Numbered from the stretch's first letter, positions 1 through 58,151 are shown. The stretch is 64,000 nt of DNA from Candidatus Latescibacterota bacterium (GCA_965248435.1 OZ252100.1:5024001-5088000); one strand, 5' to 3'. Numbers and translations are program-made. Notes: generated by a model from the letters alone, not told the origin.

Positions 1-215
1 TAGGCAAAAGAAAGGCGCCGCTCAAACGCCGCGGGGGCTCGGCCGCGGCACCTCACCCTCAGTGGAAAGGACGGTGGCGGCAATCAGGGCGGGACTCCTG
101 CCCCGCCTGACGCCCACTATGGGACCGGACCAGAGGGCCTAACCGTGTGGGAGGTGAAAGAACGAGGTTGCATCGGAGTCGCACACCGCGGCCCTGATGA
201 TTTCGAACGATCTTT
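1..215 (+). repeat. Dispersed structured element family A, copy 1 (5'-truncated by the window edge)
   Basis: Near-identical to 2301-2500 and 7683-7890; GGCCGCGG 41-48 pairs with CCGCGGCC 186-193. Confidence 0.85.
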
Positions 216-628
216 TTCGCGAGTTTGAGAGATGCTAGTCCCCTCCTGGGTCGGGGTGGGTCACAATAGGGTTTCTGCCCATCAGACCCACCCCTAAATC
301 CCCCCCAAGGAGGGCACTCTAACAATCGCACCAGACGCTTTCCGGGGTGCCCCGGAGGGGCGGGGTGGGTATCTCTTGGATCGTTTGTGGCCTCCATAAA
401 CTATGGTGCTTGACGGATAAGCGCGGAAAAGTCCCACCCCAAGTCATGGTTCATGGGAGTGGCGGAGTTTCGTGTCTTTCGTGGACTTTCGTGTTCTTTC
501 GTGATGGTCCAATATCGAATATCTAAGGTTCAATAATCAAGTGGCTTGTTTGTGAGGCTACATTCATTAAGTGCTGAAGAATGCAAAATTGTCATTCCCG
601 CGAAGGCATGTCCCGGGCTAGTTGGAAG

Positions 629-661
629 TTGACTTTTTCTCATTAGTTGATATATTCAACT
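629..661 (+). promoter_or_regulatory. Sigma70-like promoter with overlapping palindromic operator
   Basis: TTGACT 629-634, 16-nt spacer, TATATT 651-656; inverted repeat AGTTGA-N5-TCAACT 645-661; ATG follows at 662. Confidence 0.6.
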
Positions 662-1021
662 ATGGATTGGTTGAATGCGATCAGGCGCCTGCTTGGACAC
701 AGAGTTTTGGTTGAGCACGAGCCTGAAACTGATAGATACGCTCGAGCCCGCCAGAAACTGCGATACCTTATTGAACGTGGGCAATTGATCGGCAGAAAGA
801 GTAGAAGCGAGACCTTAACGGAGCTTGTCGTGTGGGCCCCGTCAAGCTCGGGAGGGCGATCTGGATACTACGCCTGTTTCAGAGTCTCTCACAAAGAGGA
901 CGATGTGCTGCACGCTGTCCTTTACTGCTTCTACGATGGCACTGACGGTTCACCGTCTGTGACTTCGGCGGATGCTGCACGTCGTATTGCTATTTCGGAA
1001 GGCTTCCTTGAAGGAGAATGA
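662..1021 (+). CDS. Hypothetical protein, putative type II toxin
   Basis: Small basic ORF with ATGA overlap to the downstream HTH antitoxin-like gene; family not recognised. Confidence 0.5.
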   Translation: MDWLNAIRRLLGHRVLVEHEPETDRYARARQKLRYLIERGQLIGRKSRSETLTELVVWAPSSSGGRSGYYACFRVSHKEDDVLHAVLYCFYDGTDGSPSVTSADAARRIAISEGFLEGE

Positions 1022-1497
1022 AGATGCGTCGCCAAACAGAGAAAGACTACAAGTACCGCGCAGCCGGTCGAACCTGGCTTGTCCCTGAACTGCACCTCGA
1101 GAAGATGCCAGACGGGACATTGACGATCTCACAGGATGAGATTGACAGAATACACAGGGCCATTGCAAACCAAATCTGTGGTTCCCCGGAAGCGCTCACC
1201 TTTGAAGAACTGGAGTTCCTTTCCGATGTCAGCGCGACTCCATTCTACGAGGTCGCAAAACAGATTGGGATGCACAAGAGCACCTTATCCAAGTGGCGAA
1301 AGTCAGGGGCTGTTCCAAACAGCATTACAAGCATTTTTCTGAAACGGTGGTTTTGGTTCAGGCTCTTCGGACAAGGTCTTGGCAATAAGACAGTCAAGCT
1401 GAAGGATCTTGGTGACGAAGCAGCCTTCCTTACTCTGGCCAAGTCGCACGCTATTGGGCAGAAACTTACAGAATCCGTTACAGAACTCACTGCCTGA
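1018..1497 (+). CDS. MqsA/YgiT-like XRE HTH protein, putative antitoxin
   Basis: IHRAIA..LTFEELEFL..EVAKQIGMHKSTLSKWRK resembles the MqsA linker plus HTH; no CxxC motifs. Confidence 0.65.
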   Translation: MKMRRQTEKDYKYRAAGRTWLVPELHLEKMPDGTLTISQDEIDRIHRAIANQICGSPEALTFEELEFLSDVSATPFYEVAKQIGMHKSTLSKWRKSGAVPNSITSIFLKRWFWFRLFGQGLGNKTVKLKDLGDEAAFLTLAKSHAIGQKLTESVTELTA

Positions 1498-1559
1498 GGC
1501 CGTGGATCGTAAAGATTAGCTTATGTGCTAATCTACATGAAGTTTGAAGAAGGCATTAA

Positions 1560-1685
1560 ATGAGGAGCTTTAGAAAACACCTGAATGAAAAGCTGAAGCG
1601 CGAGCGATTCAAGAAGCTATATAGTGAGGAGAGGCAGCTGGCCGAAATTGGCTGTCAAAATCCACCGCAAGGAGATGGAGGATGA
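1560..1685 (+). pseudogene. Truncated N-terminus of a HigA-like antitoxin
   Basis: MRSFRKHLNEKLKRERFKKLYSEERQLAE, then LAVKI in a shifted frame; HTH missing. Confidence 0.5.
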
Positions 1686-1956
1686 GTAAGTCAAAGAGGG
1701 ACATCGACCATGAGATTCTTGAAGGACTTCAGGAGATTAAGCGTGGCAAACACGGCCGGGTGATCAATGTGCCGGATATTGCCGAGATCCGGAAGAAGTC
1801 AGGCCTTTCTCAGGCTCAGTTTGCCCAACTGTTGGGTGTATCGGTTCGAACACTGCAGGGGATTGGGAGCAGGGCCGTCGCAGTCCATCAGGCGCTGCAC
1901 GAACTTTACTTATGATCGCGGCCAAGAATCCACAGGCGGTATTGGACGTGGCCTAA
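1682..1956 (+). pseudogene. Frameshifted HigA/NadS-like HTH antitoxin
   Basis: ..LLGVSVRTLQ continues as DWEQGRRSPSGAARTLLMIAAKNPQAVLDVA* after two extra G in the run at 1858-1861. Confidence 0.75.
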
Positions 1957-2183
1957 GAACAATCTGCAATCCCCAACCCGCAATTGTCCTACGGACCCCG
2001 GTACCCGTGTTTTGGTTTTCCGGTACCCGGTCTTCCGTGGCCCTCCGCCTTTCTTCCGCCTTTCTCCGTGATCCCCAGCCTTTCGCCTCCGCAATCCCCG
2101 ATCCGCAATCCGCAATTGATCGCGTTTCTGTTTCCCGAAAGGCATGCCTTCGGCGACCTACCCTTCGGCAAGCTCAGGGCATG

Positions 2184-2630
2184 CTTTTCTTGTCTCGCCA
2201 CAAGAAAAGGGCTACCGCAACCGCCACCCTTGGGCACAGCGCGGCTGTGCCCCTACACTCCAAGATTTCGCCGTAGGGGCGCGGTCGTGCCGCGCCCGAA
2301 GGCAAAAGAAAGGCGCCCCTCAAACGCCGGGGAGGCTCGGCCGCGGCACCTCACCCTCAGTGGAATAGACGGTCACGGCAATCAGGGCAGGACTCCTGCA
2401 CCGCCTGACGCCCACTATGGGACCGGCCCAGAGGGCCTAACCGCGTGGGAGGTGAAAGAACGAGGTTGCATCGGAGTCGCACACCGCGGCCCTGACGGTT
2501 TTGAGCGATGACATTGCTTTCGTTCAAACGCACGCATTAATGAAACTCTTCCCCCTTTGGAAAAGGGGGACTGAGGGGGATTTCAAGATGCATCACGCAT
2601 CGGAGTCGCACACCGCGGCCCTGATGGTTT
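2184..2630 (+). repeat. Family A copy 2, interrupted by a GTAG-REP pair and followed by a CCCCCTTT..AAAGGGGG hairpin
   Basis: CTTTTCTTG..CAAGAAAAG hairpin 2184-2209; REPs 2232-2256 and 2273-2298; body 2301-2500; tail shared with 13450-13575. Confidence 0.8.
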
Positions 2631-2747
2631 CGATGGTTTGTGGTGTGGTGGAGTTTCGTGCCTTTCGTGGATTTTCGTGTCCTTGATCCAGCCGTTCCCG
2701 TGTTTTGTCTTCCCGGTACCCGGACCCCGGTACCCTGTCACAACGAT

Positions 2748-3890
2748 TCACGCGTAAACGGCCCTTTCAAACCGATCATACACCGCCATAAACCTCGGCT
2801 CAGAAAACGGCAATGTCTGGGTCATGATAACCCCGGCGACGTCGCTGGCCGGGTCGAGCCAGAAATGGGTGTTGAGCGCGCCGGCCCAGGACTGCGAACC
2901 CGTAGCGCGTCTCCCCGGCACATCCTCTTCCATTCGCAGAAACCCGAGGCTGTGGCTCTTTTGGATGCCGGGGAAGAAATCCACATCTGCGACGAGCGAC
3001 GGATTTTGCGAGGTCATCTTGCCGACGCGGAGTTCGCCGATCTGGTTCGCGAGCATCGTCTCTACACCCGCCTCGCTCAATACCCGGCTGCCGTCCAGCT
3101 GTCCCCTGTTCAGGAACATCCTCAGAAACCGCATATAGTCGGGCACGGTGGAGTAGAGGGCGTTGCCCATCCCGTAAAACTCGGGATGAGACGGCGGTGC
3201 CAGGTCGGAATCGACGAAACGGCCGTCCTCGCGGCGCAGCTTCGCGTCGGCCAGACGATCGGCCAATCGGTCGGGGACTTCGAAGCAGGTGTCGGGCATG
3301 CCGAGCGGATCGAAGATCTCTTCCTGACAGAAGACGTCTATGCGGCGGCCGTCGATCTCTTCCACGATCTGACCGAGCCAGTCCACACCGACGCTGTAGG
3401 CCCATCGCTCGCCCGGTTCGGCAACGAGCGGGTAAAAAAGCGAGGTCTTGAGGCCGGAGCCGATCCAAAGGAATCCCGTGACTTCCATGTATCTGAGTAT
3501 GTCGCGGTTGAAGATCTCGTATGCGAAGCCGGCTGTATGTGTCGCCAGGTGACGCACGGTCGCCCTGACCTTCGGCGCGCGAAGGCGGGGTCTGTCACCG
3601 TCGAATCCCTCCAGGAGCCGGATCTCCGCGAACTGGGGCAGGATCTCTTCGGCGGGCGTGTCGAGCTTCAGTCGGCCGCGATCGATCAGGATCATCGCCG
3701 CGGTGGCGCCGACCGCTTTGCTCATCGAGAAGATCTTGAAGAGGGTCTCTTCACCCGCCGCCACACCGGGCGATCGGTCGCCCGCCGCGCCGGACCACAC
3801 GACGCCGCGTGAATTGCCTGACATCGCGACGACGAAGGGGACGTCGTTGGCGGCGACTGCGTCGCTCAGGATTGTATCAAGATCGCTCAT
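2748..3890 (-). CDS. Serine hydrolase, beta-lactamase family
   Basis: SMSK (SxxK), LATHTAG, PGERWAYS and WAG motifs. Confidence 0.9.
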   Translation of the reverse strand: MSDLDTILSDAVAANDVPFVVAMSGNSRGVVWSGAAGDRSPGVAAGEETLFKIFSMSKAVGATAAMILIDRGRLKLDTPAEEILPQFAEIRLLEGFDGDRPRLRAPKVRATVRHLATHTAGFAYEIFNRDILRYMEVTGFLWIGSGLKTSLFYPLVAEPGERWAYSVGVDWLGQIVEEIDGRRIDVFCQEEIFDPLGMPDTCFEVPDRLADRLADAKLRREDGRFVDSDLAPPSHPEFYGMGNALYSTVPDYMRFLRMFLNRGQLDGSRVLSEAGVETMLANQIGELRVGKMTSQNPSLVADVDFFPGIQKSHSLGFLRMEEDVPGRRATGSQSWAGALNTHFWLDPASDVAGVIMTQTLPFSEPRFMAVYDRFERAVYA

Positions 3891-3972
3891 AAACGTATCT
3901 CGTATCTCGGGGTAATGTGTCTCAGTCTGTTATTCCGCGAAAATCAAATCCCCCCTGCCCCCCTTTTACAAA

Positions 3973-5294
3973 GGTTCATCACCGATTTCCGGGGAAGGCG
4001 TGGCGGATTCTAAGAAAGAAATAATTATCATCCCTGAAGCCATATGCCATCCGCTTGATGACCTTGATTTTGTTGTTAATTCCCTCAATCAGGCTTGTCC
4101 CGATGGGATAGTCACAGTGAGCTAGGATTCCTGGCATATACGTCTTCAGATTGCGTGCGAATTTCTTGAGTGGCTCGATCTTGCTGTAGATGGCGCGTCG
4201 ATACCACTGATTCCAGAATCTGTTGGCCGCAGCTCTGGATCGATAAGACCAGAGATGATTGAGATCCTCTTTGAGGAGGTATACCGTGTAGAGGCGTTTG
4301 TTTGCAGAAAGCAATTCTCTTAGCGACACTCTGTCTTCTTTGCTCGTGACATTTGCTTTGCTGCGCAGGAGCAACCACCGTTGGTTCTGAGTCACTTTGC
4401 GATCGGGTCGGCCACCGCGCACCCGACCCAGTTCGTCGATGCGTACTCGCTCGACGACGTCGCGGTTGTACTTGGCTTTAACGTGATACAGGTCATAGAT
4501 GATGTCCACATCCGGACAATGGGATCGCACCTCCTCTTCGTAGGCACCGTTCATGTCCATCGCCACGGCCTCAAGTTGCTTGCAGCCTTCTTCTCCAAGG
4601 AGGTGGAAAAACGGGCGGATGTCCTCTCGACTTCGGCCGCGACCCACCCATAGGACACGCTTGGTCTCCATGTCAACAATCACTGTGGCGTAGCGATGGC
4701 CCTTTTGGATCGCAAATTCGTCCATGCCGATCACCGTGACCCTGGCAAAATCCGGCGGTTCCAGCTCTTGCTGGAGATGGGTCTTGTGAATGCGCTTCAC
4801 GGTATTCCAGCTCATCCCATAGTGCTGTGCCACGTGCTGGATGGGCAGGACTTCGCACAATCGAACAACACTTTCAGCCAGGCGTTGAGTGACCCGTGAA
4901 TACCGATCCAGCCAGTCAATCTGCTCCGTCCGGCAGCCACATCGGGGACATAGGACGCGCCGGGAGTGCACGATCAGCCTGGTTCGAGACCCCCAGATCG
5001 GCAAATCCTGAGCAAATCGCACTGCCCAATCATGAACCCGGTACGCCTTCTTCCCGCAACCACCACACCGAGGAAGGCGGCCTGTCTTGGGACGTAACTC
5101 GACTCCAACAACGTCTGCTTCCTGACGTTGAATGCCAACTACCACAAACCCTTGCCACCTACCCAGTAAGGATATACTTTGCACCTGAGACAACGCGCTC
5201 TCCTTTCTACCTTCAGGTTTATAGAGGATACTCTGAAGATAGGTCGGATGCCGTTGTCTCGTCTATTTTCTACCCCAACATTTGACGAAGAACC
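3973..5294 (-). mobile_element. ISL3-family insertion sequence, copy 1 (1322 bp)
   Basis: Ends GGTTC..GAACC; 8-bp target duplication TTTACAAA at 3965-3972 and 5295-5302. Confidence 0.95.
3979..5193 (-). CDS. ISL3 transposase
   Basis: CxxC zinc finger, IGMDEF, AMDM, EGINNKIKVIKRMAYGFR. Confidence 0.95.
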   Translation of the reverse strand: MSQVQSISLLGRWQGFVVVGIQRQEADVVGVELRPKTGRLPRCGGCGKKAYRVHDWAVRFAQDLPIWGSRTRLIVHSRRVLCPRCGCRTEQIDWLDRYSRVTQRLAESVVRLCEVLPIQHVAQHYGMSWNTVKRIHKTHLQQELEPPDFARVTVIGMDEFAIQKGHRYATVIVDMETKRVLWVGRGRSREDIRPFFHLLGEEGCKQLEAVAMDMNGAYEEEVRSHCPDVDIIYDLYHVKAKYNRDVVERVRIDELGRVRGGRPDRKVTQNQRWLLLRSKANVTSKEDRVSLRELLSANKRLYTVYLLKEDLNHLWSYRSRAAANRFWNQWYRRAIYSKIEPLKKFARNLKTYMPGILAHCDYPIGTSLIEGINNKIKVIKRMAYGFRDDNYFFLRIRHAFPGNR

Positions 5295-5496
5295 TTTACA
5301 AAGGGGGGCAGGTTGCTCACGCAGGCGGAGACGCCCCATCGGGGCGTCTCTACGGTGATAGATCGTCTCCGTGCCCTCCTGTTCTTTCTGCTTTTCTCCG
5401 CCTTTTTCCGTGATCCAGCTTTTTTGGATCCAGGGTTTTGCGGTACCCGGTACCCGTGTTTTGGTTTCCCGGTACCCGGTACCCGGTACCCGGTTC

Positions 5497-7413
5497 TCAC
5501 CACGTATTTATCCGATGCCCGTTCCCGTGAAACCAGATCGTGTCGACAACGACGCCGAGGCCGACGCCGGCCAGGAACCCGATGAACATGCCGAGGAAGA
5601 ACGGCGTGGCCTTCCGGTAGTACTCCGGGCCGCCGAGCTTGATCAGGACGGTCCGGATCAGCCAGACGAGGAAGAACGGACAGATGCTGCTCCGCATGGC
5701 CCCCGAGGCGGCGATCGTGAACCCGATCGGATGGATCGGGAAGGTGGGGAGCCGGGTGCGCAGGAAGAAGAGCAGCGCGGTGAACGCGCCGCCCAGCCCC
5801 AGAAACGTCACGCGGTCCCAGTCGGTCCCGAAGTTCTGCTGTAGGCGGCGGCCCGTGAGCGGCCAGATTCCGCCGATGCCGTCGTAGGCGCCCCCGCCGA
5901 AGTTGTAGCTCCCGATCGTGGTGTAACCCTGGTGCAGCGTGAACGTGATCACGACCGCCGCGCCGATCGACGCCCCCGCGAGGATGGCGGGGACGAGGGC
6001 GCGCCGGTAGCGGACCGCCATGGCGGTGCCCAGCCGGGGGATGTGGGCGAGCGCGGTGATGCCGAACGTCTTCGCGTCGCAGAAGAAGGCGTAGGTCAGC
6101 CCGCCCAGGGCGACCGCGCTCGCCGTGCCCAACCCGGTGGTCCCGAACAGGTGCCAGGTGAACGACTGCGCGGTGATCGGTCCGCGGAGATAGATCAGCC
6201 CGCTCTCGACGATGATGCGCGCCAGACCGAGGTAGAGGACGAGGGTGCCGAACCCGAAGGCGAGGAGCGGCCCGAGCGCCATCCCGGCCCGGTTCAGCCA
6301 GAGGCCGGCGTAGAGCACGCAGCCGAGGAACAGCCAGACCGCGGTCCGGTAGGAGAGGAGTTCGCCGGAATCGTCGATCTCGCCCCGCCTCGTGAACGCC
6401 TTCCGAAAGACCGCCCCGAGGTGCGCCCGCGCGACCCAGAGGCCCCAGCCAACGAAAACGATCATCCCGCCGAAGGACTGCCATCCGATCGCGGCGTCGA
6501 ACGAACACCACGGGTCCGGCCCACCGATGTCGAACCCGGTCCGGTTCTGGAAGCCCGCCTGCAGCATGGCCAGGAAGTGAAACAACCAGATGCTGACCAG
6601 GACCTCCGAATTGCAGAAGTAGGCGAAGGCCATGGTCATCGGGTGGATCTTGAGCACGAACCCGGGAAACCCCTTGAACGTCGGAATGCCCTCGCCTCGC
6701 AGGAAGAATCGGGGCAGGTCGGGGACGGAGACGAAGAACCAGGAGAGGATGATCCAGACGATCGCGCCCAGGACGGACCAGAAACCGGCCTGGAAGAGCC
6801 GGGATCGAAGCAGCGTCCGGAGCGTGCCCTGCGAGCCGGAGACGCCGGTGAGCGCCAGCAGGCCGGTCGCGATCGGAAAGGCGAGCCGCTCGTGATCCAT
6901 CCACTGCTTGCGGAGGATGATGGCGATGCAGACGTTCGCGAGCAAGATCGCGGCCAGGAAGCCGCTCCACCAGAAGAACGGGACGATCCAGGGCCGCCAC
7001 GGGAGGTCGGCCCCCTCGGGCAGACTCTCGTAGAACCCCACGATGGCCGGTTTGTCGGAGACGATCGTCCAGTCCGGGATGTGGGGGAGCAGGAACTCCT
7101 CCCACTGGCTCTCCGCGGTCGCGAAGTAGAGCGGGTGCGTGATGACGGGGAGGAAGTAATCGGAGAGCCACTCGCCCTGTATGTTGCCGGCGACCATCCC
7201 GATGCAGCAGACGGTGAGGAGCTCGGAGGGTGAAAGGCCGCGGCGACCGAGCAGCAGGTTGAGACCGAGCAGGCAGATGAACGGGACGAGAAAGGCGACG
7301 GAGATGTGCGCGAAGTCGGCGCGTGACGAACGGACGACCAGGTTGGCGTAGGGGATCCAGAGGTTGGCCAGGGCGGCGATGGCGAGGCCGAGGAGGAGGG
7401 AACGCTTCGTCAT
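5497..7413 (-). CDS. Polytopic membrane protein, DUF6785/DUF6784-like putative transporter
   Basis: Many hydrophobic segments; RKQWxxxERLxFP and PIHPIG motifs. Confidence 0.75.
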   Translation of the reverse strand: MTKRSLLLGLAIAALANLWIPYANLVVRSSRADFAHISVAFLVPFICLLGLNLLLGRRGLSPSELLTVCCIGMVAGNIQGEWLSDYFLPVITHPLYFATAESQWEEFLLPHIPDWTIVSDKPAIVGFYESLPEGADLPWRPWIVPFFWWSGFLAAILLANVCIAIILRKQWMDHERLAFPIATGLLALTGVSGSQGTLRTLLRSRLFQAGFWSVLGAIVWIILSWFFVSVPDLPRFFLRGEGIPTFKGFPGFVLKIHPMTMAFAYFCNSEVLVSIWLFHFLAMLQAGFQNRTGFDIGGPDPWCSFDAAIGWQSFGGMIVFVGWGLWVARAHLGAVFRKAFTRRGEIDDSGELLSYRTAVWLFLGCVLYAGLWLNRAGMALGPLLAFGFGTLVLYLGLARIIVESGLIYLRGPITAQSFTWHLFGTTGLGTASAVALGGLTYAFFCDAKTFGITALAHIPRLGTAMAVRYRRALVPAILAGASIGAAVVITFTLHQGYTTIGSYNFGGGAYDGIGGIWPLTGRRLQQNFGTDWDRVTFLGLGGAFTALLFFLRTRLPTFPIHPIGFTIAASGAMRSSICPFFLVWLIRTVLIKLGGPEYYRKATPFFLGMFIGFLAGVGLGVVVDTIWFHGNGHRINTW

Positions 7414-7418
7414 GAACC

Positions 7419-7568
7419 CGTATCTCGTATTTCGTATCTCGTATCTCGTGGGCCCGTCATCTCGCGTGTTTCTTGATCTCGCAGAATTCGTGTCCTATTT
7501 GCCATTCGACGAGATACGTTTCACGAGATACGCTCTTTCCGAGATACGCTTCACGAGATACGAGATGC
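7419..7568. repeat. Inverted heptamer tandem-repeat hairpin (CGTATCT)n..(AGATACG)n
   Basis: About four CGTATCT units at 7419-7449 and several GAGATAC units at 7511-7567; same heptamer at 3894-3908 and 13643-13668. Confidence 0.8.
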
Positions 7569-7625
7569 CGTAACAAAGTCCCCTCCTGGTTGCCCCGAAG
7601 GGGCGGGGTGGGTTAAATCACGAGC

Positions 7626-7915
7626 TTCACAAAAGCATGCCTCCGGCAGCCAACTTTTCTTGCTCGCCCAAGAAAAGTTGGACAAAAGAAGGGCTCCCCT
7701 CAAGCGCCGGGGATGCTCGGGCCGCGGCACCTCACCCTCAGTGGAAAGGACGGTGGCGGCAATCAGGGCGGGACTCCTGCACCGTCTGACGCCCACTATG
7801 GGACCGGCCCAGAGGGCCCAACCCGCGGGAGGTGAAAGAACGAGGTTGCATTGGAGTCGCACACCGCGGCCCTGATGGTTTCGAGCGATCTTTTTCGCGA
7901 GTTTAAGAGACGCCA
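7626..7915 (+). repeat. Family A copy 3 (full length)
   Basis: 12-bp hairpin CAACTTTTCTTG-CTCGCC-CAAGAAAAGTTG 7651-7680 followed by the body shared with copies 1 and 2. Confidence 0.85.
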
Positions 7916-7958
7916 GTTCCCGCAGGGGGGCGGGGTGGGTAATCTACAGAACGGCACC

Positions 7959-8942
7959 TCAACGCGACTGCGAGAAAAGCTTCAGATCGGCCTCGACCAT
8001 TTCGACGACGAGGTCCTTGAACGAGACGTCGTAGGACCAGCCCAGCTTTTCTTTGGCCTTGCTGGCGTCCCCGATCAGGAGCTCGACTTCAGCCGGCCGG
8101 AGGAATCGGGGATCCAGCTGGATGTGCTCCTCGTAGTCCAGCCCGACGTGCGAAAAGGCGATTTCGGCGAACTCCCTCACCGAATGAGTCTCACCGGTCG
8201 CGATCACGTAGTCATCCGGCTTGTCCTGCTGGAGCATGAGCCACATGGCCCTGACGTATTCCCTCGCGTGTCCCCAGTCTCGCTTGGAATCCAGGTTTCC
8301 CATGGTGACGTGGCCTGTCTGCTTGAGTTTGATCCTGGCCACGTGCGAGGTAATCTTTCGCGTGGAGAATTCGAAGCCCCGGCGAGGGGATTCGTGGTTG
8401 AAGAGGATGCCGCTCGAGGCGTGGAGGTCGTAGGCCTCGCGATAGTTTCGAGTGAGGTCGTAGCCGGCGACCTTGGAGATGCCGTAGGGCGAGCGGGGAT
8501 GGAACCGGGTGGTCTCCTTCTGGGGGACCTCCGCGACCTTGCCGAACATCTCGCTCGATCCCGCGAAGTAGAACCGGGTGTCCGGCTTGAGGTCGTGCAG
8601 CGCCGCGAGGACGTAGTGCGTCCCGTTGATGTTCGTATTCAAGGTCGAAAAGGCGTCCTGGAATGAGATTTCGACGAAGCTCTGCGCAGCGAGGTGGTAT
8701 AACTCATCGGGCTGGACGGTCTTGATGAGGTTGTAGATGCTCGGGTAGCTCTCCATCGAGGCGGGATGCAGCTGGAGCCGGTCCAGGATGTGCCGGATTC
8801 TGCCCATCCGGTGTTCCTGGTCTTCAAGGGCGATGCGACGCACGGTGCCGTGGACCTCGTAGCCCTTATCGAGCAGGAACTCTGCGAGATATGAGCCGTC
8901 CTGGCCCGTGATGCCGGTGATCAATGCGATGGGGTTTGCCAT
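7959..8942 (-). CDS. gmd: GDP-mannose 4,6-dehydratase
   Basis: ALITGITGQDGSYLAEFLL, PRSPYGISK, GILFNHESPRRG. Confidence 0.95.
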   Translation of the reverse strand: MANPIALITGITGQDGSYLAEFLLDKGYEVHGTVRRIALEDQEHRMGRIRHILDRLQLHPASMESYPSIYNLIKTVQPDELYHLAAQSFVEISFQDAFSTLNTNINGTHYVLAALHDLKPDTRFYFAGSSEMFGKVAEVPQKETTRFHPRSPYGISKVAGYDLTRNYREAYDLHASSGILFNHESPRRGFEFSTRKITSHVARIKLKQTGHVTMGNLDSKRDWGHAREYVRAMWLMLQQDKPDDYVIATGETHSVREFAEIAFSHVGLDYEEHIQLDPRFLRPAEVELLIGDASKAKEKLGWSYDVSFKDLVVEMVEADLKLFSQSR

Positions 8943-9062
8943 GCCTATTTTCTGTTGTGATTCATTTTGAAAATCCCCCTCAATCCCCCTTTTCCAAAGG
9001 GGGAAGAATCTATTCCCGTATCAGTACACCTTCAGAAAGAACAACCTCCCCCCTTTCGTAAA

Positions 9063-10384
9063 GGTTCTTCGTCAAATGTTGGGGTAGAAAATAGACGAGA
9101 CAACGGCATCCGACCTATCTTCAGAGTATCCTCTATAAACCTGAAGGTAGAAAGGAGAGCGCGTTGTCTCAGGTGCAAAGTATATCCTTACTGGGTAGGT
9201 GGCAAGGGTTTGTGGTAGTTGGCATTCAACGTCAGGAAGCAGACGTTGTTGGAGTCGAGTTACGTCCCAAGACAGGCCGCCTTCCTCGGTGTGGTGGTTG
9301 CGGGAAGAAGGCGTACCGGGTTCATGATTGGGCAGTGCGATTTGCTCAGGATTTGCCGATCTGGGGGTCTCGAACCAGGCTGATCGTGCACTCCCGGCGC
9401 GTCCTATGTCCCCGATGTGGCTGCCGGACGGAGCAGATTGACTGGCTGGATCGGTATTCACGGGTCACTCAACGCCTGGCTGAAAGTGTTGTTCGATTGT
9501 GCGAAGTCCTGCCCATCCAGCACGTGGCACAGCACTATGGGATGAGCTGGAATACCGTGAAGCGCATTCACAAGACCCATCTCCAGCAAGAGCTGGAACC
9601 GCCGGATTTTGCCAGGGTCACGGTGATCGGCATGGACGAATTTGCGATCCAAAAGGGCCATCGCTACGCCACAGTGATTGTTGACATGGAGACCAAGCGT
9701 GTCCTATGGGTGGGTCGCGGCCGAAGTCGAGAGGACATCCGCCCGTTTTTCCACCTCCTTGGAGAAGAAGGCTGCAAGCAACTTGAGGCCGTGGCGATGG
9801 ACATGAACGGTGCCTACGAAGAGGAGGTGCGATCCCATTGTCCGGATGTGGACATCATCTATGACCTGTATCACGTTAAAGCCAAGTACAACCGCGACGT
9901 CGTCGAGCGAGTACGCATCGACGAACTGGGTCGGGTGCGCGGTGGCCGACCCGATCGCAAAGTGACTCAGAACCAACGGTGGTTGCTCCTGCGCAGCAAA
10001 GCAAATGTCACGAGCAAAGAAGACAGAGTGTCGCTAAGAGAATTGCTTTCTGCAAACAAACGCCTCTACACGGTATACCTCCTCAAAGAGGATCTCAATC
10101 ATCTCTGGTCTTATCGATCCAGAGCTGCGGCCAACAGATTCTGGAATCAGTGGTATCGACGCGCCATCTACAGCAAGATCGAGCCACTCAAGAAATTCGC
10201 ACGCAATCTGAAGACGTATATGCCAGGAATCCTAGCTCACTGTGACTATCCCATCGGGACAAGCCTGATTGAGGGAATTAACAACAAAATCAAGGTCATC
10301 AAGCGGATGGCATATGGCTTCAGGGATGATAATTATTTCTTTCTTAGAATCCGCCACGCCTTCCCCGGAAATCGGTGATGAACC
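9063..10384 (+). mobile_element. ISL3-family insertion sequence, copy 2 (1322 bp)
   Basis: Inverted copy of 3973-5294 with identical transposase; flanks TTCGTAAA and TTGCTAAA differ. Confidence 0.95.
9164..10378 (+). CDS. ISL3 transposase
   Basis: Same 404-aa protein as 3979-5193. Confidence 0.95.
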   Translation: MSQVQSISLLGRWQGFVVVGIQRQEADVVGVELRPKTGRLPRCGGCGKKAYRVHDWAVRFAQDLPIWGSRTRLIVHSRRVLCPRCGCRTEQIDWLDRYSRVTQRLAESVVRLCEVLPIQHVAQHYGMSWNTVKRIHKTHLQQELEPPDFARVTVIGMDEFAIQKGHRYATVIVDMETKRVLWVGRGRSREDIRPFFHLLGEEGCKQLEAVAMDMNGAYEEEVRSHCPDVDIIYDLYHVKAKYNRDVVERVRIDELGRVRGGRPDRKVTQNQRWLLLRSKANVTSKEDRVSLRELLSANKRLYTVYLLKEDLNHLWSYRSRAAANRFWNQWYRRAIYSKIEPLKKFARNLKTYMPGILAHCDYPIGTSLIEGINNKIKVIKRMAYGFRDDNYFFLRIRHAFPGNR

Positions 10385-10413
10385 TTGCTAAAGGGGGGCA
10401 GGGGGGATTTCCG

Positions 10414-11304
10414 CTAGCGAATCGCCTCGGGCCTGATTTCACCGAGCGGGACGTCGAGCAGGTCCTCCGCGAAGATGATGTTCCCGTCGAAGACCTCGCC
10501 CGCCTCGAACAGGACGCGCTCGCGAATCCCGGGCTGCTCGAGCTGCTCGGTCAAGTGGACCAGGATGAGGGTCTTGACCTTCGCGTCGCGGGCCGTGGCA
10601 GCGCAGTCCAGATGCCCCGAGCAGGCGGCCGTGATCCTCGGATCGGTCACGACGCCGTTCAGCAGGTGGCACATGTGGATCAGGACGTCGGCCCCCTCGG
10701 CGAGGTTCGTGAGTTTTTCGGTCGGCGCGGTGTCCCCTCCGAACACGATCGACTTGTCTGGCGTGTCCAGCCGGTAGGCCATGCAGATCAGGTGGGGCTG
10801 GGCGTGGGCGACTTCAGCGACCTTGACGGTCCAGTTCGGTTTTTCGATCTGGTCTCCGTGCGCAACCTCGGTCACCGACGGATCGGGACGTTTTCTGGGC
10901 AGCTTCCCGCCCCGCTGCTGGCAGACGAACTGGCCGCCCCGGCCGAGAGTTCTGGCCGCGAGATCGGGAGCGTAAACCCCCGATTCGCTGAACAGCTGCT
11001 CGGTCATGCGGGCCGTCGGCTCAGGGCCGTAGACTTCCAGATCGGGGATCGTGCCGGCGCCCTGGTCCCAGCGCACGAGCGTGAAGTAGCCGTAGTCGAC
11101 GCAGTGGTCGTAGTGCAGATGGGTGAGGAGCAGCGTGTTGATCGTCGTCGGAGAAACGCCCTTCTTGAGGAGGCGCCGGACCGCGCCCGGACCGCAGTCG
11201 ACCAGGATGCTTTCATCGTCGAGTTTAACCAGATAGCTCGATCCGGCGCGGTGGACGAGCGGGGTGGGGGTGCCGGTTCCGAGCAGGGTTAACTCAGTGG
11301 CCAT
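10414..11304 (-). CDS. MBL-fold metallohydrolase, RNase Z/arylsulfatase-like
   Basis: LLGTGTP, VDCG, THLHYDH, GDT motifs. Confidence 0.85.
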   Translation of the reverse strand: MATELTLLGTGTPTPLVHRAGSSYLVKLDDESILVDCGPGAVRRLLKKGVSPTTINTLLLTHLHYDHCVDYGYFTLVRWDQGAGTIPDLEVYGPEPTARMTEQLFSESGVYAPDLAARTLGRGGQFVCQQRGGKLPRKRPDPSVTEVAHGDQIEKPNWTVKVAEVAHAQPHLICMAYRLDTPDKSIVFGGDTAPTEKLTNLAEGADVLIHMCHLLNGVVTDPRITAACSGHLDCAATARDAKVKTLILVHLTEQLEQPGIRERVLFEAGEVFDGNIIFAEDLLDVPLGEIRPEAIR

Positions 11305-11381
11305 TGAAGCTCCTTACAAAAGATGAATGTCGAACCGCAGAATATCGAATGATGAAGGAAAGGCTCGTAAACAGGCGAATC

Positions 11382-11540
11382 TGTCATCCCGAGGAGCCTT
11401 CAAGTCATTGCATTGATCCGAAAGACTTAGAGCAACCGGCGACGAGGGATCTCAAGAGCTTGTTACTCAGTGAATCTTCTCGTGATGTCACAGCTGCTGC
11501 ATTGCCTGCTGAGATTCCTCGCTGACGCTCGGAATGACAA
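11382..11540 (+). repeat. TGTCAT..ATGACA palindromic miniature element, copy 1
   Basis: TGTCATCCCGAG..CTCGGAATGACA ends; related copy inverted at 60587-60745. Confidence 0.85.
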
Positions 11541-11610
11541 AATGGAGCGCTGGGTGATCTGCATTTCATTCCCCAATCCCAAATCCGCAATCCGCAATTA
11601 GATGACTTTC

Positions 11611-12582
11611 TTATCTGTCGACGCCTTTTTCCCAGTGCCTGATCAATGGCTTCAGCTGCTCCCAGAACGCCTCCGGGATTTCGACTTCGCCTGCACGGAC
11701 ATTCTCGATCGCCTCTTCCGGCGTCCTGGCGCCGGGGATCGTGGTGGCGACCTGCGGATGCCGTGTGCACCACTGAAGGGCGGCGGCCACCATCGGAATG
11801 CCGTGGTCCTGGCAGAGGCGCTGGATCTGCGTCACCTGCTCCAGGCAGGGCGGGCTGAAGTTTCGGTCCAAGTATTCGGTGCCCGAGGAGGGACCGGTGG
11901 CGAGGAGGCCGCGTTCCAGGGGCGTGGCCGTGACGATGCCGATGTCGTGTTTCTCCGCGGCGGGCAGGACACGGCGGGCGGCGAACTGATCCAGCATGCT
12001 CCACGAGTCGGCCGATACGGCGGCGTCGAACTCGCCGGTTTCGAGGTAATCGGCATTGGTCTCGGGGTCGTTCGAGGCGGAACCGATGAACCGGACGACC
12101 CCTTCGTCCTGAAGCTTCCTGAGCGCAGCGAAGGCGCAGAATTTGCCCAGCATCATGTCCATCGAGAAGCCCATCGCGTCGTGGATGTAAAGGATCTCGA
12201 ATTTCTCGATCCCGAGCCGCTCCTGGCTCTGTTCCACGTCACGTAAAATTGCGTCGTAGGTAAAATCGCGCGCCATGTTGTGGCTCTGCCCGACTTTGGT
12301 CGTCACGGTCACGCCCGCGGCCAGGTCGGGACGCGCCTTGAGCGCCCGGCCGACGATCTCTTCGCTGCGGCCGGCGCCGTAGAACCGCGCGGTGTCGATG
12401 AAGCTGCAGCCCGCCTCGATGGCGGCGTGCACCGCCTTCACCCCGAGCTCGATATCCACCTGACCGGGCTGACCCCCGTACTCGAGCGCGACCAGATTGT
12501 GGTCCGGAATGCCGACATGCGCGGCGCCCATGCCCACGATCGGGACTTCCAGTCCGGTACGGCCCAGGATCTTGGTTTTCAT
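11611..12582 (-). CDS. Aldo/keto reductase
   Basis: LGRTGLEV, FIDTARFYGAGRSEE, TTKVG, YIHD, IPGART. Confidence 0.9.
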   Translation of the reverse strand: MKTKILGRTGLEVPIVGMGAAHVGIPDHNLVALEYGGQPGQVDIELGVKAVHAAIEAGCSFIDTARFYGAGRSEEIVGRALKARPDLAAGVTVTTKVGQSHNMARDFTYDAILRDVEQSQERLGIEKFEILYIHDAMGFSMDMMLGKFCAFAALRKLQDEGVVRFIGSASNDPETNADYLETGEFDAAVSADSWSMLDQFAARRVLPAAEKHDIGIVTATPLERGLLATGPSSGTEYLDRNFSPPCLEQVTQIQRLCQDHGIPMVAAALQWCTRHPQVATTIPGARTPEEAIENVRAGEVEIPEAFWEQLKPLIRHWEKGVDR

Positions 12583-12810
12583 CTCGATCCCCTTGCTCCT
12601 TGCGCGGTTTTGACGGGGTAAGATAGCACCAGCATTGGGGTGACGCAAGGCCTCAACCGCGGGCGATTGTCCCCACGGGGATGTCTCTGCGGGATACCTC
12701 ACCGTAGGGGCAGGCCCCTGTGCCTGCCCGCATTTCAACGTATTCATTACGCGGACGGGCAACCACGTGTCCCACAGGACACGACCTGAGACGATCCACG
12801 AACGACTGCC

Positions 12811-12903
12811 TTAACCCATGCCTCCGGCGGCCCGCCCGTCGGCTCGGCGTCTTCGATCACGAACTCGCCATTGATCATCACGAAGTCGATGCCGACGGCT
12901 TCT
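12811..12903 (-). pseudogene. C-terminal fragment of an amidohydrolase (D-aminoacylase-like)
   Basis: Translates as EAVGIDFVMINGEFVIEDAEPTG; rest of the gene absent. Confidence 0.55.
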
Positions 12904-12919
12904 GAACGTTGCTACCGGT

Positions 12920-13105
12920 ATCCTACTCTCTTGCTCGCCCAAGAAAAGTTGGACAAGAGAAGGGCGCCCTTCAGGCGCCGGGGAGGCTGACTTTTCCGCG
13001 AACCGTCCCAGTGGCCCTAGAGATGTTTGTGTCCTTGGATCTTTTGTGTTGTCCATAAACGGGAGTGCTTGACGGATAAGCGCGGAAAAGTCCCACCCCA
13101 CCCCA
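12920..13105 (+). repeat. Family A variant with an alternative closing stem and interior
   Basis: Same 5' hairpin and leader; GACTTTTCCGCG 12989-13000 pairs with CGCGGAAAAGTC 13081-13092; 3' part recurs at about 375-440. Confidence 0.75.
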
Positions 13106-13210
13106 CGGGCATCGTGAATGAAATTATATGCGGTAGGAGCCAGCTCCTGCTGGCGAACCTCTGAATGGAGCTTTCATATTCAAGAGGCATATCAAACGAG
13201 GATCACAAGG

Positions 13211-13585
13211 TTCACAAAACAATGCCTCCGGCTGCCCACTTTTCTTGCTCGCCCAAGAAAAGTGGGTCAAAAGAAAGGCGCCGCTCAGGCGCCGCGGGGG
13301 CTCCGGCCGCGGCGCCTCACCCGCAGTGGCATAAACAGTCCACGGCAGGAAGGCCAAATCCTCACCACGTGCTCGCGATCACTGAGGAACCAACCCGCCG
13401 GGGAGGAGAAATGGGCTGGTTGCATCGGAGTCGCACACCGCGGCCCCCAACGGTTTTGAGCAATGACATTGCTTTCGTTCAAACACACGCATTAATGAAA
13501 CTCTTCCCCCTTTGGAAAAGGGGGACTGAGGGGGATTTCAAGATGCATCACGAAAGGGAGTCGCACACCGCGGCCCCGATGGGTT
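13211..13585 (+). repeat. Family A copy 4 with a divergent interior
   Basis: Hairpin 13235-13266, GGCCGCGG..CCGCGGCC arms, GCATCGGAGTCGCACA motif; middle differs from copies 1-3. Confidence 0.8.
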
Positions 13586-13779
13586 TCAGTGAGCCTTTTC
13601 GCGGTGAACACGTCGCATAGTGAATTGGGAAGGTGCCTCTGACGAGATACGAGATACGAGATACGATACCAAGGTACCCGGTACCCGAACCCCGGTACCC
13701 GGTTTTTCCCGAACGACGATCCTGTCGTGTCCCACAGGACACAACCTGAGACGATCGACGAACGACGGCTTTTTGGGGG

Positions 13780-13810
13780 TTGACAATTTCGCCGGTTTCT
13801 GCTTAAGTTT
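13780..13810 (+). promoter_or_regulatory. Sigma70-like promoter of slt
   Basis: TTGACA-N18-TAAGTT. Confidence 0.55.
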
Positions 13811-13869
13811 GTGAATAATTAAGACCTACGTGCACGCAGCTGGGGGTATTGGTGCTGAAGAATCTAATC

Positions 13870-16044
13870 ATGGAAAAGGGAGCATTCCGTCTGGGGCGGC
13901 CGTTCTGGACCGCGGTCTGTGGGGCCACTGTCCTGATCCTGGCCCTGCTGCTCGGCAGCCCGGAGCGGCTGGCGATGAGCGAGCGGCTCGATCCGACCCG
14001 GCACGCAGAGCTGTTGATCTCCCAGGGGGATTATGGCGAGGCCCTCCGGCTGCTCTCCAGCCTTGGGACCGAGGGACTGGATCCCTGGTCCGTGAACCGC
14101 ATTCTGCTCCAGCGGGCGATCTGCCAGAAGTTTCTGGGGCGCTCCGGAGAGGCGCTCGCCGGATTCCAGGCACTCGATGGGAAGATCGAGCATATCCAGG
14201 ACTATCTGACCTTCTGGCAGGCCGAATGTCTCGAGGGCCTGGGCCGGTCGGGCAGCGCCGCGAAACTCTACCGACGCGTGGCGGCGCTTCAGCCGGCCAG
14301 CCGGCTGAAGGAGTGGGCCGTTTTGAGGGCCGCCGACTTACACCTTGCGAGGAAGCGCGCTTCGGATGCCATTCCGCTCTATCGCCAGCTTCTCGGAATC
14401 AGCCACGAGGAGGTGAGGGCGCTCGTCGGGCTGGCGTCCGGGCTGGAAACGACGGGCGATTCCACGGAGGCGCGCAAGACTCGGCTCCGCCTGGTGAGAG
14501 ACTACCCGGAAACGCCCGAGGCGTTGGAGGCCCTCCGCCAGATGGAACCGCTGAAACAGACCCGCGAGCGATTCTACGGTGGGATTGCCTACAGGGAGCA
14601 CAAAATGCTGCGGCAGGCAGCGACCCTGTTCAGCGAGATCGCCAATGCGTCATCCGAGCATCACTGGAGGGGCAGGGCCCACTACGAACTGGGGCTCGTG
14701 CAGTTCGATCGACGTCAATACCGGTCGGCGGAACGGAGCTTCGAGAAGGCCTTCCGGGTCTACGCCGTTCCGAAGGCACTGTTCGAACTCGGGCGCTGCG
14801 CCGTGAAGACCGGACGGGACACGAGGGGGGTAGAGCAGTTCGAGGCCTATGCCCGGCTCTATCCCAACCTGGGAGGGGCGGCGGAGGCCCTGTGGAATTC
14901 CGCGATGGCCTATGAGCGCAGGCGGAAGCATCGGGAGGCACGGAAGCTCTTCTTGAAGCTGGCCGCCCGGTATCCCCGCAGCTCGTTTGCCGACAAGGGC
15001 CGTTGGCGGGCTGGGTTTGCGCTTTTCCAGGTGAAGGAGTATGAGGAGGCCGCACGCGCCTTCCTGGGCCTGGCCAAGAATACGGAGGAAAGCTACCTGA
15101 GGGACCAGGGTTTTTATTGGGCGGCGAAGTGTTACCACCGGATCGGAAAGAAGGAGGAGGCCGCGCTGCGGATGGAGCAGGCGGCCGAAGGGTTCCCGAC
15201 CTCCTACTACTCGGCGCGGGCCCGGAAGGCGTTGGGACTCGATTCGGAGGTCTATCCGACCGTCCCGGAGTGGTCCCCCGCGGTCGAACAGGAAGGCGAT
15301 CCGTCATCCCCATACCTGACGAAGGGCGACATTCTGGCCGCGCTCGGACTCTACCGGCTCGCGCAGAGGGAGTACGCGCGCGCCGAGCGCGCGCACTCGG
15401 GCGACCGGTTCGCGCTCAACCACCTCCTGCAGCGCTACGAGCGAGTCGGCGCCATGAATCTGGCCCTCGGCATCTCGAGCCGGATCCTGAATCTCGAGCA
15501 GGAAGAAGGCGTACCGATGACGCTCGCTTCCTTCCGCAGGCTGTATCCGACCTATTACTGGGGCGAGATCAGCCACGCCGCACAGCAGCTGGATGTGGAT
15601 CCGAACCTGATTCTGGCGATCATCAGGCAGGAAAGCGCCTTCAACGAAAAGGCGCTTTCCCGGGCCGGCGCCAGAGGGCTGATGCAGGTCATGCCGCTGA
15701 CCGGCCGCATGCTCGCGCGACAGGCGCACGTCAGAAACTTTTCGGTCGACGATCTCTGGAACCCGAGGACCTCGATCCATTTCGGGGCGCAGCACCTGTC
15801 GGACCATCTCAGGTATTTTGACAAGACCGAAGACCGCCGGCTGGGTCTGGCGCTGTCCGCCTACAACGCGGGCCTGAACGCCGCGCGGCGCTGGTCGAAG
15901 CGGCTGCCGGATGACGATGTCGATACGTTCGTGGAGAGCATTCCTTACCGCGAGACCCGGAACTACGTGAAGCTTGTCTACAGAAACTACCAGGTCTACT
16001 CTTACCTTGAGGGAGTGGGACCCGATCAGGAAGCGGTGCAGTAG
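13870..16044 (+). CDS. slt: Soluble lytic murein transglycosylase with TPR repeats
   Basis: IRQES, GARGLMQVM, AYNAG, ETRNYVK motifs; helical repeats in the N-terminal part. Confidence 0.9.
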   Translation: MEKGAFRLGRPFWTAVCGATVLILALLLGSPERLAMSERLDPTRHAELLISQGDYGEALRLLSSLGTEGLDPWSVNRILLQRAICQKFLGRSGEALAGFQALDGKIEHIQDYLTFWQAECLEGLGRSGSAAKLYRRVAALQPASRLKEWAVLRAADLHLARKRASDAIPLYRQLLGISHEEVRALVGLASGLETTGDSTEARKTRLRLVRDYPETPEALEALRQMEPLKQTRERFYGGIAYREHKMLRQAATLFSEIANASSEHHWRGRAHYELGLVQFDRRQYRSAERSFEKAFRVYAVPKALFELGRCAVKTGRDTRGVEQFEAYARLYPNLGGAAEALWNSAMAYERRRKHREARKLFLKLAARYPRSSFADKGRWRAGFALFQVKEYEEAARAFLGLAKNTEESYLRDQGFYWAAKCYHRIGKKEEAALRMEQAAEGFPTSYYSARARKALGLDSEVYPTVPEWSPAVEQEGDPSSPYLTKGDILAALGLYRLAQREYARAERAHSGDRFALNHLLQRYERVGAMNLALGISSRILNLEQEEGVPMTLASFRRLYPTYYWGEISHAAQQLDVDPNLILAIIRQESAFNEKALSRAGARGLMQVMPLTGRMLARQAHVRNFSVDDLWNPRTSIHFGAQHLSDHLRYFDKTEDRRLGLALSAYNAGLNAARRWSKRLPDDDVDTFVESIPYRETRNYVKLVYRNYQVYSYLEGVGPDQEAVQ

Positions 16045-22973: not shown

Positions 22974-22994
22974 TTTCGTCGCTCTAAAAAGAAC

Positions 22995-23250
22995 GGGTAC
23001 CGGGAAACCAAAACACGGGTACCGGGTACCGGAAAACTGTCGTTCGCATACCCTATCTAATCGCGTGTGGCACGGGCGGCTTGTCCGCCCGTGGAAAACG
23101 ACTCACTTTTTGAATCACAAAACACGTTCATCACTACCCACCGGCAGCAAGCTGCCGGTGCCACACCACCTACTTTGCTTGATCAACTTCAAGCTGATTC
23201 CGGAGCTCAATCAATTGCCCGCGATCGACGAACGACGATCAACGATCCAC
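22995..23250. repeat. Repeat mosaic: GGTACC element, GTGGCAC REP pair and heptamer run
   Basis: GGGTACCGGGAAACCAAAACACGGGTACCGGGTACCG 22995-23031; GTGGCAC 23067 to GTGCCAC 23164. Confidence 0.75.
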
Positions 23251-54503: not shown

Positions 54504-55045
54504 ATGCCGGGTACCGGGAAATCAAAACACGGGTATCGGGTACCGCAAAACCGGGCATCTTGGATCGTGATTCGTAATCGAAACTACTCGCGATCTAAAT
54601 GACCCGTAGGGGCAGGCCTCCGCGCCTGCCCTTAAATCTTTCACCAAGTAAATGACACCCCCGGTACCCGGTACCGGAATGCCGGGTACCGGGAAACCAA
54701 AACACGGGTATCGGGTACCGCAAAACCAGGCATCTTGGATCGTGATTCGTAGTCGAAACTAGCCGCGATCTAAATGACCTGTAGGGGCAGGCCTCCGCGC
54801 CTGCCCTTAAATCTTTCACCAAGTAAATGACACCCCCGGTACCCGGTACCCAGAATGCCGGGTACCGGGAAATCAAAACACGGGTATCGGGTACCGCAAA
54901 ACCGGGCATCTTGGATCGTGATTCGTAATCGAAACTACTCGCGATCTAAATGACCCGTAGGGGCAGGCCTCCGCGCCTGCCCTTAAATCTTTCACCAAGT
55001 AAATGACACCCCACGGTACCCGGTACCCGAACCCCGGTACCCGGT
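54504..55045. repeat. Three tandem 175-176 bp mosaic units (BIME-like)
   Basis: Units start at 54504, 54679 and 54855; each holds a GGTACC element and the REP GTAGGGGCAGGCCTCCGCGCCTGCCCT. Confidence 0.9.
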
Positions 55046-58095: not shown

Positions 58096-58151
58096 TTTTT
58101 TGTGCGAAATCGCCCGCGCTCTTCCCTCGAAGGCGGTTGGGTTCTTCGCGT

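Follow-up and report, generated by a model that had tools for sequence, protein, structure and literature searches.

The closest described relatives of the repeats reported here are the TwoAYGGAY elements, Rfam family RF01731 (Weinberg 2010; PMC2864571), for which the Minerva preprint on the Pseudomonadota forms (10.64898/2026.09.22.753630) adds a lengthened basal stem together with a pseudoknot at the 3' end. In its text, that preprint reports 68% divergent doublets, repetitive extragenic palindromic (REP) arrays in a constant downstream position, and copy numbers that vary widely, and it leaves undecided whether the repeats are a Csr sponge or a mobile element. Extended TwoAYGGAY-like repeats are already in print. 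We analyzed a 64,000-nt stretch of a Candidatus Latescibacterota bacterium genome (GCA_965248435.1, OZ252100.1:5024001-5088000; hereafter the window), in which an initial annotation, made from the sequence alone, had noticed a dispersed element in four copies, a variant, and a fragment. Judged from sequence, these copies are almost certainly Latescibacterota-type members of a superfamily of noncoding, nonautonomous dispersed repeats that includes the TwoAYGGAY elements. On the minus strand, each would consist of a long basal stem round a subfamily-specific interior, followed by a module of ~55 nt. Our best explanation as a whole, for which we see even chances, is a nonautonomous single-stranded DNA (ssDNA) element with a folded, triple-helix end.

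A Shared Terminal Module with Subfamily-Specific Interiors

GTDB genomes were scanned with a hairpin-plus-linker pattern, which matched at least 92 stretches. The resulting superfamily consists of dispersed intergenic repeats of ~200 nt and, among the matches listed, covers 9 to 10 phyla, with members in Latescibacterota, Beta- and Gammaproteobacteria, Desulfuromonadales, Thermodesulfovibrionales, Elusimicrobiota, Bacteroidota, Leptospirales, Clostridia, and a metagenome-assembled genome labeled Gemmatimonas. Plasmid searches, covering chromids and plasmids, added Fusobacteriota, Pasteurella, Ralstonia, Caballeronia, Variovorax, and Pseudoalteromonas, and blastn of a Kangiella doublet against plasmids gave no match. 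The ~55-nt terminal module is common to all members and the interiors are subfamily-specific: that of window subfamily A recurs in Latescibacterota locus L052 (L-numbers label relative loci outside the window), and that of subfamily V in L058, while L005, L064, and L070 have related stems. Upstream of 95 of 121 modules, a seed for a long-range stem, 8 bp or longer, was found, at a median distance of 139 nt and with very different sequences, some of these seeds being inverted repeats of doublets and not basal stems.

The Module Is Predicted to Fold into a Pseudoknot with a Triple Helix

Relative loci among the matches listed supplied 122 modules, 90 of them distinct; one chance-like module (L005+) entered the parallel/antiparallel and offset-tolerant tests and was left out of later counts (hence n = 121). 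A model was built from 69 distinct modules, none from the window. Along the minus strand, the module opens with 4 to 6 nt, followed by a pyrimidine tract and a single G; then come five basal pairs, the pyrimidine arm, ~8 bases of loop, a purine run, and a small end hairpin. Its predicted parts in the intact window copy c3 are as follows.

7650..7694, minus strand: c3 terminal module, 66.3 bits against the 69-module model
7691-7694, minus strand: pseudoknot strand
7684-7690, minus strand: third (Hoogsteen) strand
7670-7676, minus strand: pyrimidine arm
7663-7668, minus strand: loop
7655-7661, minus strand: purine strand
7650-7654/7677-7681, minus strand: basal pairs
7639..7647, minus strand: hairpin of 3 bp at the 3' end of c3, its triloop C(GGA)G; present too in c2 (2146-2154) and c4 (13224-13232)

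Three helices covary. Across the 69 distinct nonwindow modules, the hairpin was 96.0% paired and the pseudoknot, formed by the 4 to 6 nt with the hairpin loop, 68.9% paired (slid controls, 45 to 59%; 0/500 shuffles), with changes on both sides at 4/4 pairs. An offset-tolerant test of the pseudoknot agreed (278 versus 209 ± 6; 0/5000). The pyrimidine tract follows the purine run in the parallel direction, with T matching A and C matching G: among 23 distinct tract types, the parallel match was the longer in 13, the antiparallel in 0, and 10 tied, while the total parallel match of 151 compares with 116.5 ± 5 after tracts were swapped among types (0/20000). Within the window, an A-to-G change in the purine strand of the variant copy v is matched by a T-to-C change in its third strand. 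In Salinisphaera (L072 and L044, with copies outside the original search), the purine run is broken by a T and the tract has a G there, in six clean copies and two registers; a single C-G inversion has C opposite. G-TA is a tolerated triplet in DNA triplexes (PMC5814803). For the MALAT1 RNA helix, G.U-A is not among the triples reported to retain 30% stability, and C.C-G is among them (PMC4836648).

These patterns suggest that the module very probably combines an H-type pseudoknot and an intrastrand triplex of class IV, 6 to 8 steps long. A pseudoknot stem of 4 to 6 bp would form with the hairpin loop, and the pyrimidine tract would lie parallel in the major groove of the T/A-rich stem, making 6 to 8 T.A-T and C.G-C triples. 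Hoogsteen, pyrimidine, and purine tracts succeeding one another 5' to 3' with T.A-T and C.G-C triads fit the definition of class IV given in PMC4666352, and the E. coli TM/ITxF repeats described there are likewise intergenic and able to form an intrastrand triplex. Natural RNA triple helices, in contrast, typically hold 3 to 5 consecutive triples (PMC4836648). The initial annotation had argued for structure conserved at the single-strand level, and the joint covariation of hairpin, pseudoknot, and parallel third strand carries that claim further than it was first made.

Several points tell against the fold as drawn or against its being DNA. Herbaspirillum copies found by the scan lack pseudoknot pairing. 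Evidence from T-A inversions comes from one genome, in which some copies are mismatched chimeras, and C.C-G is tolerated in RNA too. The third strand is separated from the basal stem by only 0 to 1 unpaired nt in 105/121 modules; the basal stem must therefore fray, in DNA and RNA alike. In addition, the scan pattern fixed the commonest tract type, the module search demanded an upstream pyrimidine tract, and the shuffle statistics ignore the relatedness of copies. Because the module search required the tract on one side, the opposite-strand triplex control is not independent.

Two simpler accounts of the module were weighed against these data. It could be an intrinsic terminator or attenuator, in which a GC hairpin or the basal stem plus a T tract halts RNA polymerase; the hairpin downstream would then be incidental or serve in both directions. 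Terminator-like sites are in fact present on the minus strand (6 versus 1.6 in shuffled sequence, including 13293-13277 and 12979-12963), but a terminator does not explain the base-by-base parallel match of the U tract to the purine strand, including G opposite T, and the upstream gene is codirectional in only 37/71 cases; we regard this account as improbable. A neutral mosaic of the REP or bacterial interspersed mosaic element (BIME) type, with symmetry produced by mutational processes and no selected tertiary structure, would be in keeping with a window rich in unrelated palindromic repeats, with the insertion of REP-like units in the element, and with the decay of copies by deletion. However, covariation of three helices over 9 to 10 phyla and a mirror that breaks at inversions as triad rules predict make it very improbable. 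Mirror symmetry is not known to arise from slippage or template switching.

Some modules depart from the common layout. L046 (7981-8045) and L045 (7980-8045) have a pyrimidine tract on both sides of the hairpin, and both strands score as a module (second strand, 43.7 and 33.9 bits, respectively). In Solimonas, modules at L010 8327-8400 and L061 8329-8402 contain a 23-nt insertion within the pyrimidine arm.

Loop Types Favor Single-Stranded DNA over RNA

A census of 93 representative element regions recorded 79 C(GNA)G triloop hairpins, 62 of them unambiguous, versus 8.3 in shuffled sequence and 11 on the other strand. In the same regions, C(UNCG)G was absent (0) and GNRA was at background (12 versus 14.5). 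The C(GNA)G excess was seen in 22 of 30 genome/genus groups, with 1 opposite and 7 tied, at a density of 3.3 per kb versus 0.4 in the flanks, and flanking DNA showed no strand difference in GNA loops. Closed by a C:G pair, the d(GNA) loop is very stable in DNA (PMC3201870). The DNA-type C(GNA)G loops and the absence of UNCG therefore favor ssDNA over RNA, and we consider it rather probable that the fold acts as ssDNA, exposed in replication or transcription.

The serious competitor is a multicopy structured RNA transcribed from the minus strand, with an interior that binds proteins (in the TwoAYGGAY subfamily, Csr/Rsm) and a triple-helical pseudoknot that either shields the 3' end or brings in a reverse transcriptase in trans. 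RNA pseudoknot triple helices have this topology, and the very short junction suits the deep groove of A-form helices. A known RNA precedent is telomerase RNA, likewise an H-type pseudoknot, with pyrimidine-motif triples made by its first loop in the stem 2 major groove (PMC7583470), although it is a single-copy eukaryotic RNA with a protein partner, and no sequence relationship is claimed. TwoAYGGAY loops, moreover, match the CsrA-binding motif (PMC4333381; 10.64898/2026.09.22.753630), and RF02421, a predicted Burkholderia small RNA family, overlaps the 3' end of L095. This precedent and the CsrA-type loops speak against ssDNA, as do the 8/30 groups without a GNA excess and a wobble asymmetry that is weak (G.T versus A.C, 8 versus 2 in unfiltered basal pairs and 55 versus 39 in long stems). 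Conversely, the census found no UNCG and no GNRA excess alongside a strong one of C(GNA)G, CANGGANG hairpins lie near only 6/121 modules, G stands opposite T-A inversions, no sigma-70-like promoter was present in the one region examined (12600-13900), and orientation is unrelated to adjacent genes (37/71 each side). On balance, a structured RNA is unlikely, though a real rival. The initial annotation had offered a structured RNA, a guide-like scaffold, or an ssDNA-mobilized element, and the last is the best supported of the three.

A replication-strand test based on GC skew gave 20 negative, 10 positive, and 1 zero values among 31 nonindependent loci and was not used. In four Latescibacterota loci with strong GC skew (~-0.2 to -0.27; L025, L066, L071, and L078), the folding strand lies on the C-rich strand (4/4). 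A conserved central motif, TGAG-C-GNA-G-CGAG, with a GNA triloop beside possible tandem G.A pairs, occurs in betaproteobacterial, Desulfuromonadales, and Bacteroidota loci (e.g., L006, L011, L028, L049, and L097); it crosses phyla and is absent from the subfamilies of the window.

The Window Copies Are Mosaics of Module, Interior, and Flank

All previously noticed copies were found again, with slightly adjusted ends. They lie in tandem on one strand, but the folding strand is the minus and not, as first annotated, the plus: on the minus strand, c3, c4, and v score 66.3, 64.8, and 38.5 bits, respectively, against the 69-module model, whereas plus-strand scores of 30.8 to 35.1 bits reflect the hairpin only.

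1..~226, minus strand: copy c1, subfamily A, cut by the window edge, with the terminal hairpin beyond the edge
6-12, 41-48/186-194, and to 226, minus strand: c1 third strand, basal stem, and leader, respectively
375..441, minus strand: fragment of a subfamily V copy, comprising one basal-stem arm and some of the interior; identity to 13034-13100, 88%
2146..2492, minus strand: copy c2, subfamily A, with two insertions dividing its terminal module
2161..2183, no strand assigned: small palindrome of 23 nt inserted at the foot of the c2 terminal hairpin
~2210..2298, no strand assigned: inverted pair of GTAG-footed REP-like palindromes (2232-2256 and 2273-2297) between the c2 hairpin and third strand
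2490..2633, minus strand: flank of 141 nt common to c2 and c4 (94%), with a short second copy of the outer stem arm (2597-2633) at its end
7639..7904, minus strand: copy c3, subfamily A, intact, basal stem 7720-7727/7864-7872
12919..13100, minus strand: copy v, subfamily V, carrying a partly degraded form of the same module; its basal stem (12989-13000/13081-13092) and interior differ from those of A
13224..13446, minus strand: copy c4, a diverged member of subfamily A with its module (13232-13283) intact and its basal stem at 13305-13312/13438-13445
13445..13603, minus strand: c4 flank common to c2, with a short second copy of the outer stem arm (13557-13603)

In the window, 5 matches to the linker motif compare with 0.07 expected (0/100 shuffles), and 3 matches to the hairpin with 0.00 expected. 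What had been described as an A-rich linker is the complement of the predicted third strand. The compensatory CAAC/GTTG versus CCAC/GTGG change and both long-range stems are as first described, and CAGTGG is invariant in all five window copies but not outside the window (CAGATG in L052, CAGGGG in L005). Instead of three interiors, two nonhomologous ones were found: those of c1 to c3 are 94 to 95% identical, c4 is 68 to 72% identical to them, and v is 41 to 43%. The notion of an exchangeable interior holds in that module, interior, and flank assort independently, as a mosaic (c2 combines a c1/c3-type interior with the flank of c4, at 91%, and v is nearest to c3, at 86%, on its module side), but not in the sense of programmable swapping. 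The split module of c2 gave two partial matches to the model (21.9 and 19.9 bits), and c2 probably does not fold like the other copies.

Interior structure in c1 to c4 is weakly supported, with both-side changes in 3/33 predicted pairs and an unfavorable covariation term. Minus-strand folding gave z = -2.2 to -2.9, a score in which pseudoknots and triples are not modeled; plus-strand folding (z = -1.8 to -2.1) was dropped as belonging to the wrong strand. Against plasmids and phages, blastn of the window copies returned chance-level matches or none.

Comparison with TwoAYGGAY and Novelty

Rfam was run on 52 of the 104 relative loci. TwoAYGGAY was found at a module in three (L082, L103, and L104), each match ending at or within ~20 nt of the module. 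The Kangiella copy matches on the strand opposite to the window plus strand and ends where the module starts (58.3 bits, gathering threshold 43), and in two Pseudoalteromonas loci with AYGGAY-type loops the TwoAYGGAY match is followed by the module. Gammaproteobacterial rows of the published seed likewise stop where the module begins (PMC2864571, supplement). Besides RF02421 in one locus, nothing else in Rfam fell on the element among the 52. The window copies themselves gave no Rfam match at the gathering threshold and none above chance at E<=5 (1-14000); c1 to c4 lack AYGGAY, and v has one ATGGAC and one AAGGAC.

The window element therefore shares a terminal module with TwoAYGGAY around a different interior and is a relative of that family, not a member as defined, lacking the two AYGGAY loops and any Rfam match. 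Extended TwoAYGGAY elements agree with it in the long basal stem, the 3' pseudoknot, multicopy intergenic spread, and REP neighbors, and we infer that the 3' pseudoknot of the preprint would be the present module. Divergent doublets occur among the relative loci (13/18 close pairs); the window copies all lie in tandem on one strand. The two descriptions differ in that the preprint text treats the element as RNA, with the extension largely in Pseudomonadota, whereas here the module is found in 9 to 10 phyla with many other interiors; and the 5' 5-mer repeats of the preprint are not enriched upstream in the present set (1.1 versus 1.3 per 200 nt). The comparison covers the preprint's text, as distinct from its figures, supplements (S17-S29), and covariance model.

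The initial annotation had called the element possibly undescribed. In part it is known, the module following the known TwoAYGGAY and its extended form standing in the preprint. Neither a triple helix in this family, nor DNA-type loops, nor a module over 9 to 10 phyla with unrelated interiors was encountered in the literature searched, which mostly did not cover subscription journals. The main text of the preprint has no "triplex," "triple helix," or "RAYT," and its figures and supplements may bear on novelty. Few natural intrastrand triple helices have comparative evidence of selection behind them. In the present repeats, the third strand follows the purine strand over many phyla and in one genome obeys the DNA triplex G.T-A rule. 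Should the fold act as DNA, it would be a genomic tertiary structure under selection, recasting a 15-y-old orphan "RNA" family and the recent Csr-sponge reading, and the TwoAYGGAY family may not be RNA at all. Should it act as RNA, it would be a bacterial triple-helix pseudoknot longer than most natural ones known. Either way, the module offers a handle toward the protein that spreads these repeats.

Spread in Doublets and Arrays, and the Search for a Partner Gene

Among close pairs, 13/18 are divergent, and doublet partners are 50 to 86% identical. L072 has six tandem units of ~583 nt. In Salinisphaera, tandem arrays of such doublet units (L072, 5547-8886; L031, 7996-9196) carry chimeric modules, suggesting gene conversion within the array. 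One Ralstonia site holds a doublet, a collapsed hairpin, or neither, being lost by deletion, depending on the strain, and REPINs decay in a comparable way (PMC3116915).

REP/REPIN-RAYT systems (PMC3116915, PMC6006769) share with the present repeats a noncoding, extragenic nature, inverted doublets, tandem arrays, decay by central deletion, ssDNA-type hairpins, and no target duplication seen. They differ in unit length (20 to 65 versus ~200 nt here) and in the pseudoknot and triplex predicted here, where doublet partners are 50 to 86% identical and no fixed GT(A/G)G guide is present. With the guide defined as GTAG or GTGG 0 to 2 nt 5' of the hairpin foot (PMC6006769), GTAG/GTGG follows the purine run in only 24/121 modules, and the position covaries with the other arm of the hairpin; there is therefore no fixed REP guide. 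No RAYT was found among the 150 of 223 small neighbor ORFs scanned or in the window; whole genomes were not searched. The Pfam scan of neighbors took in these 150 small ORFs within 2.5 kb of copies, leaving aside ORFs above 330 aa and the other 73 small ones. Unlike MITEs (miniature transposable elements with inverted repeats), the present repeats have no terminal inverted repeats or target-site duplication that could be found.

The folded end may be what a trans-acting enzyme that processes ssDNA, of the HUH/REP-transposase kind, recognizes, and/or may stall polymerase, and copies may spread as divergent doublets and tandem arrays, swapping modules by recombination; as one claim, inferred only, this is tentative. 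Equally tentative is the wider picture of cross-phylum ssDNA elements with a selected tertiary fold and interchangeable bodies, that of the TwoAYGGAY RNA being one, spread by a trans-acting enzyme that reads the fold. Along with the missing guide, several negatives count against such mobility. There was no clean empty site, the Ralstonia locus yielding deletion derivatives only. Terminal repeats and target duplication were absent at the four window copies (by eye, as first annotated), in within-genome alignments, and at the Ralstonia site. Neither a transposase nor an HUH protein, a reverse transcriptase, or a guided nuclease was among the 150 small ORFs; the 52 window ORFs scanned gave no named nuclease, HUH enzyme, or reverse transcriptase; and 963 ORFs, in clusters left unnamed, showed no recurring adjacent gene family.

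A guide scaffold, either an omegaRNA of TnpB/IscB or an IS110 bridge RNA, derived from a nonautonomous insertion sequence and using the interior as a guide, is highly improbable and finds no support here. Such RNAs contain pseudoknots and triplexes, and the interiors do vary between copies. They are, however, kept as subfamilies across genomes and are not site-variable, no Rfam match was obtained, and no TnpB, IscB, or IS110 protein was found in the window or among the 150 neighbors.

P. fluorescens SBW25 has 47 copies of the R200 repeat (PMC2718517), and the preprint counts 48 TwoAYGGAY matches; the likeness is one of number.

Genomic Surroundings of the Window Copies

Window neighbors are ordinary genes, two ISL3 copies, and a short helix-turn-helix (HTH) ORF. 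Between c1 and c2 (647-1497 and 1682-1915) lie two ORFs of 124 and 159 aa that match nothing in Pfam, the latter possibly containing an HTH, together with an antitoxin-like HTH ORF that is frameshifted. The two ISL3 insertion sequences (3951-5318 and 9039-10406), 99% identical, in opposite orientation, and 3.7 kb apart, bracket a DUF6785/6784 gene, copy c3, and a GDP-mannose dehydratase gene. The only Rfam match in the whole window is a cobalamin riboswitch (58138-58335, minus strand) upstream of an ABC/FecCD transporter operon.

Other dispersed repeat families fill the intergenic regions, often adjoining the element (e.g., 1992-2045, 22994-23037, 54504-55045, 7420-7570, 2088-2117, 2547-2583, and 12702-12729). 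They comprise GGTACC-type, GAGATAC, and TCCGCAA tandems, a C/T-G/A hairpin, and GTAG-footed palindromes. At 8971-9007, 2547-2583, and 13502-13538, a pyrimidine/purine hairpin with an adjacent G-rich tract resembles, by eye, the purine-motif intrastrand triplex repeat TM (PMC4666352). An insert near-identical to the 2161-2183 palindrome of c2 occupies the same site in L058 (~7975-8000), a subfamily V copy in another genome, and small palindromes also lie within L052 at ~7900-7990, so that the same element positions are hit across genomes and subfamilies. These recurrent positions suggest repeated targeting or module exchange.

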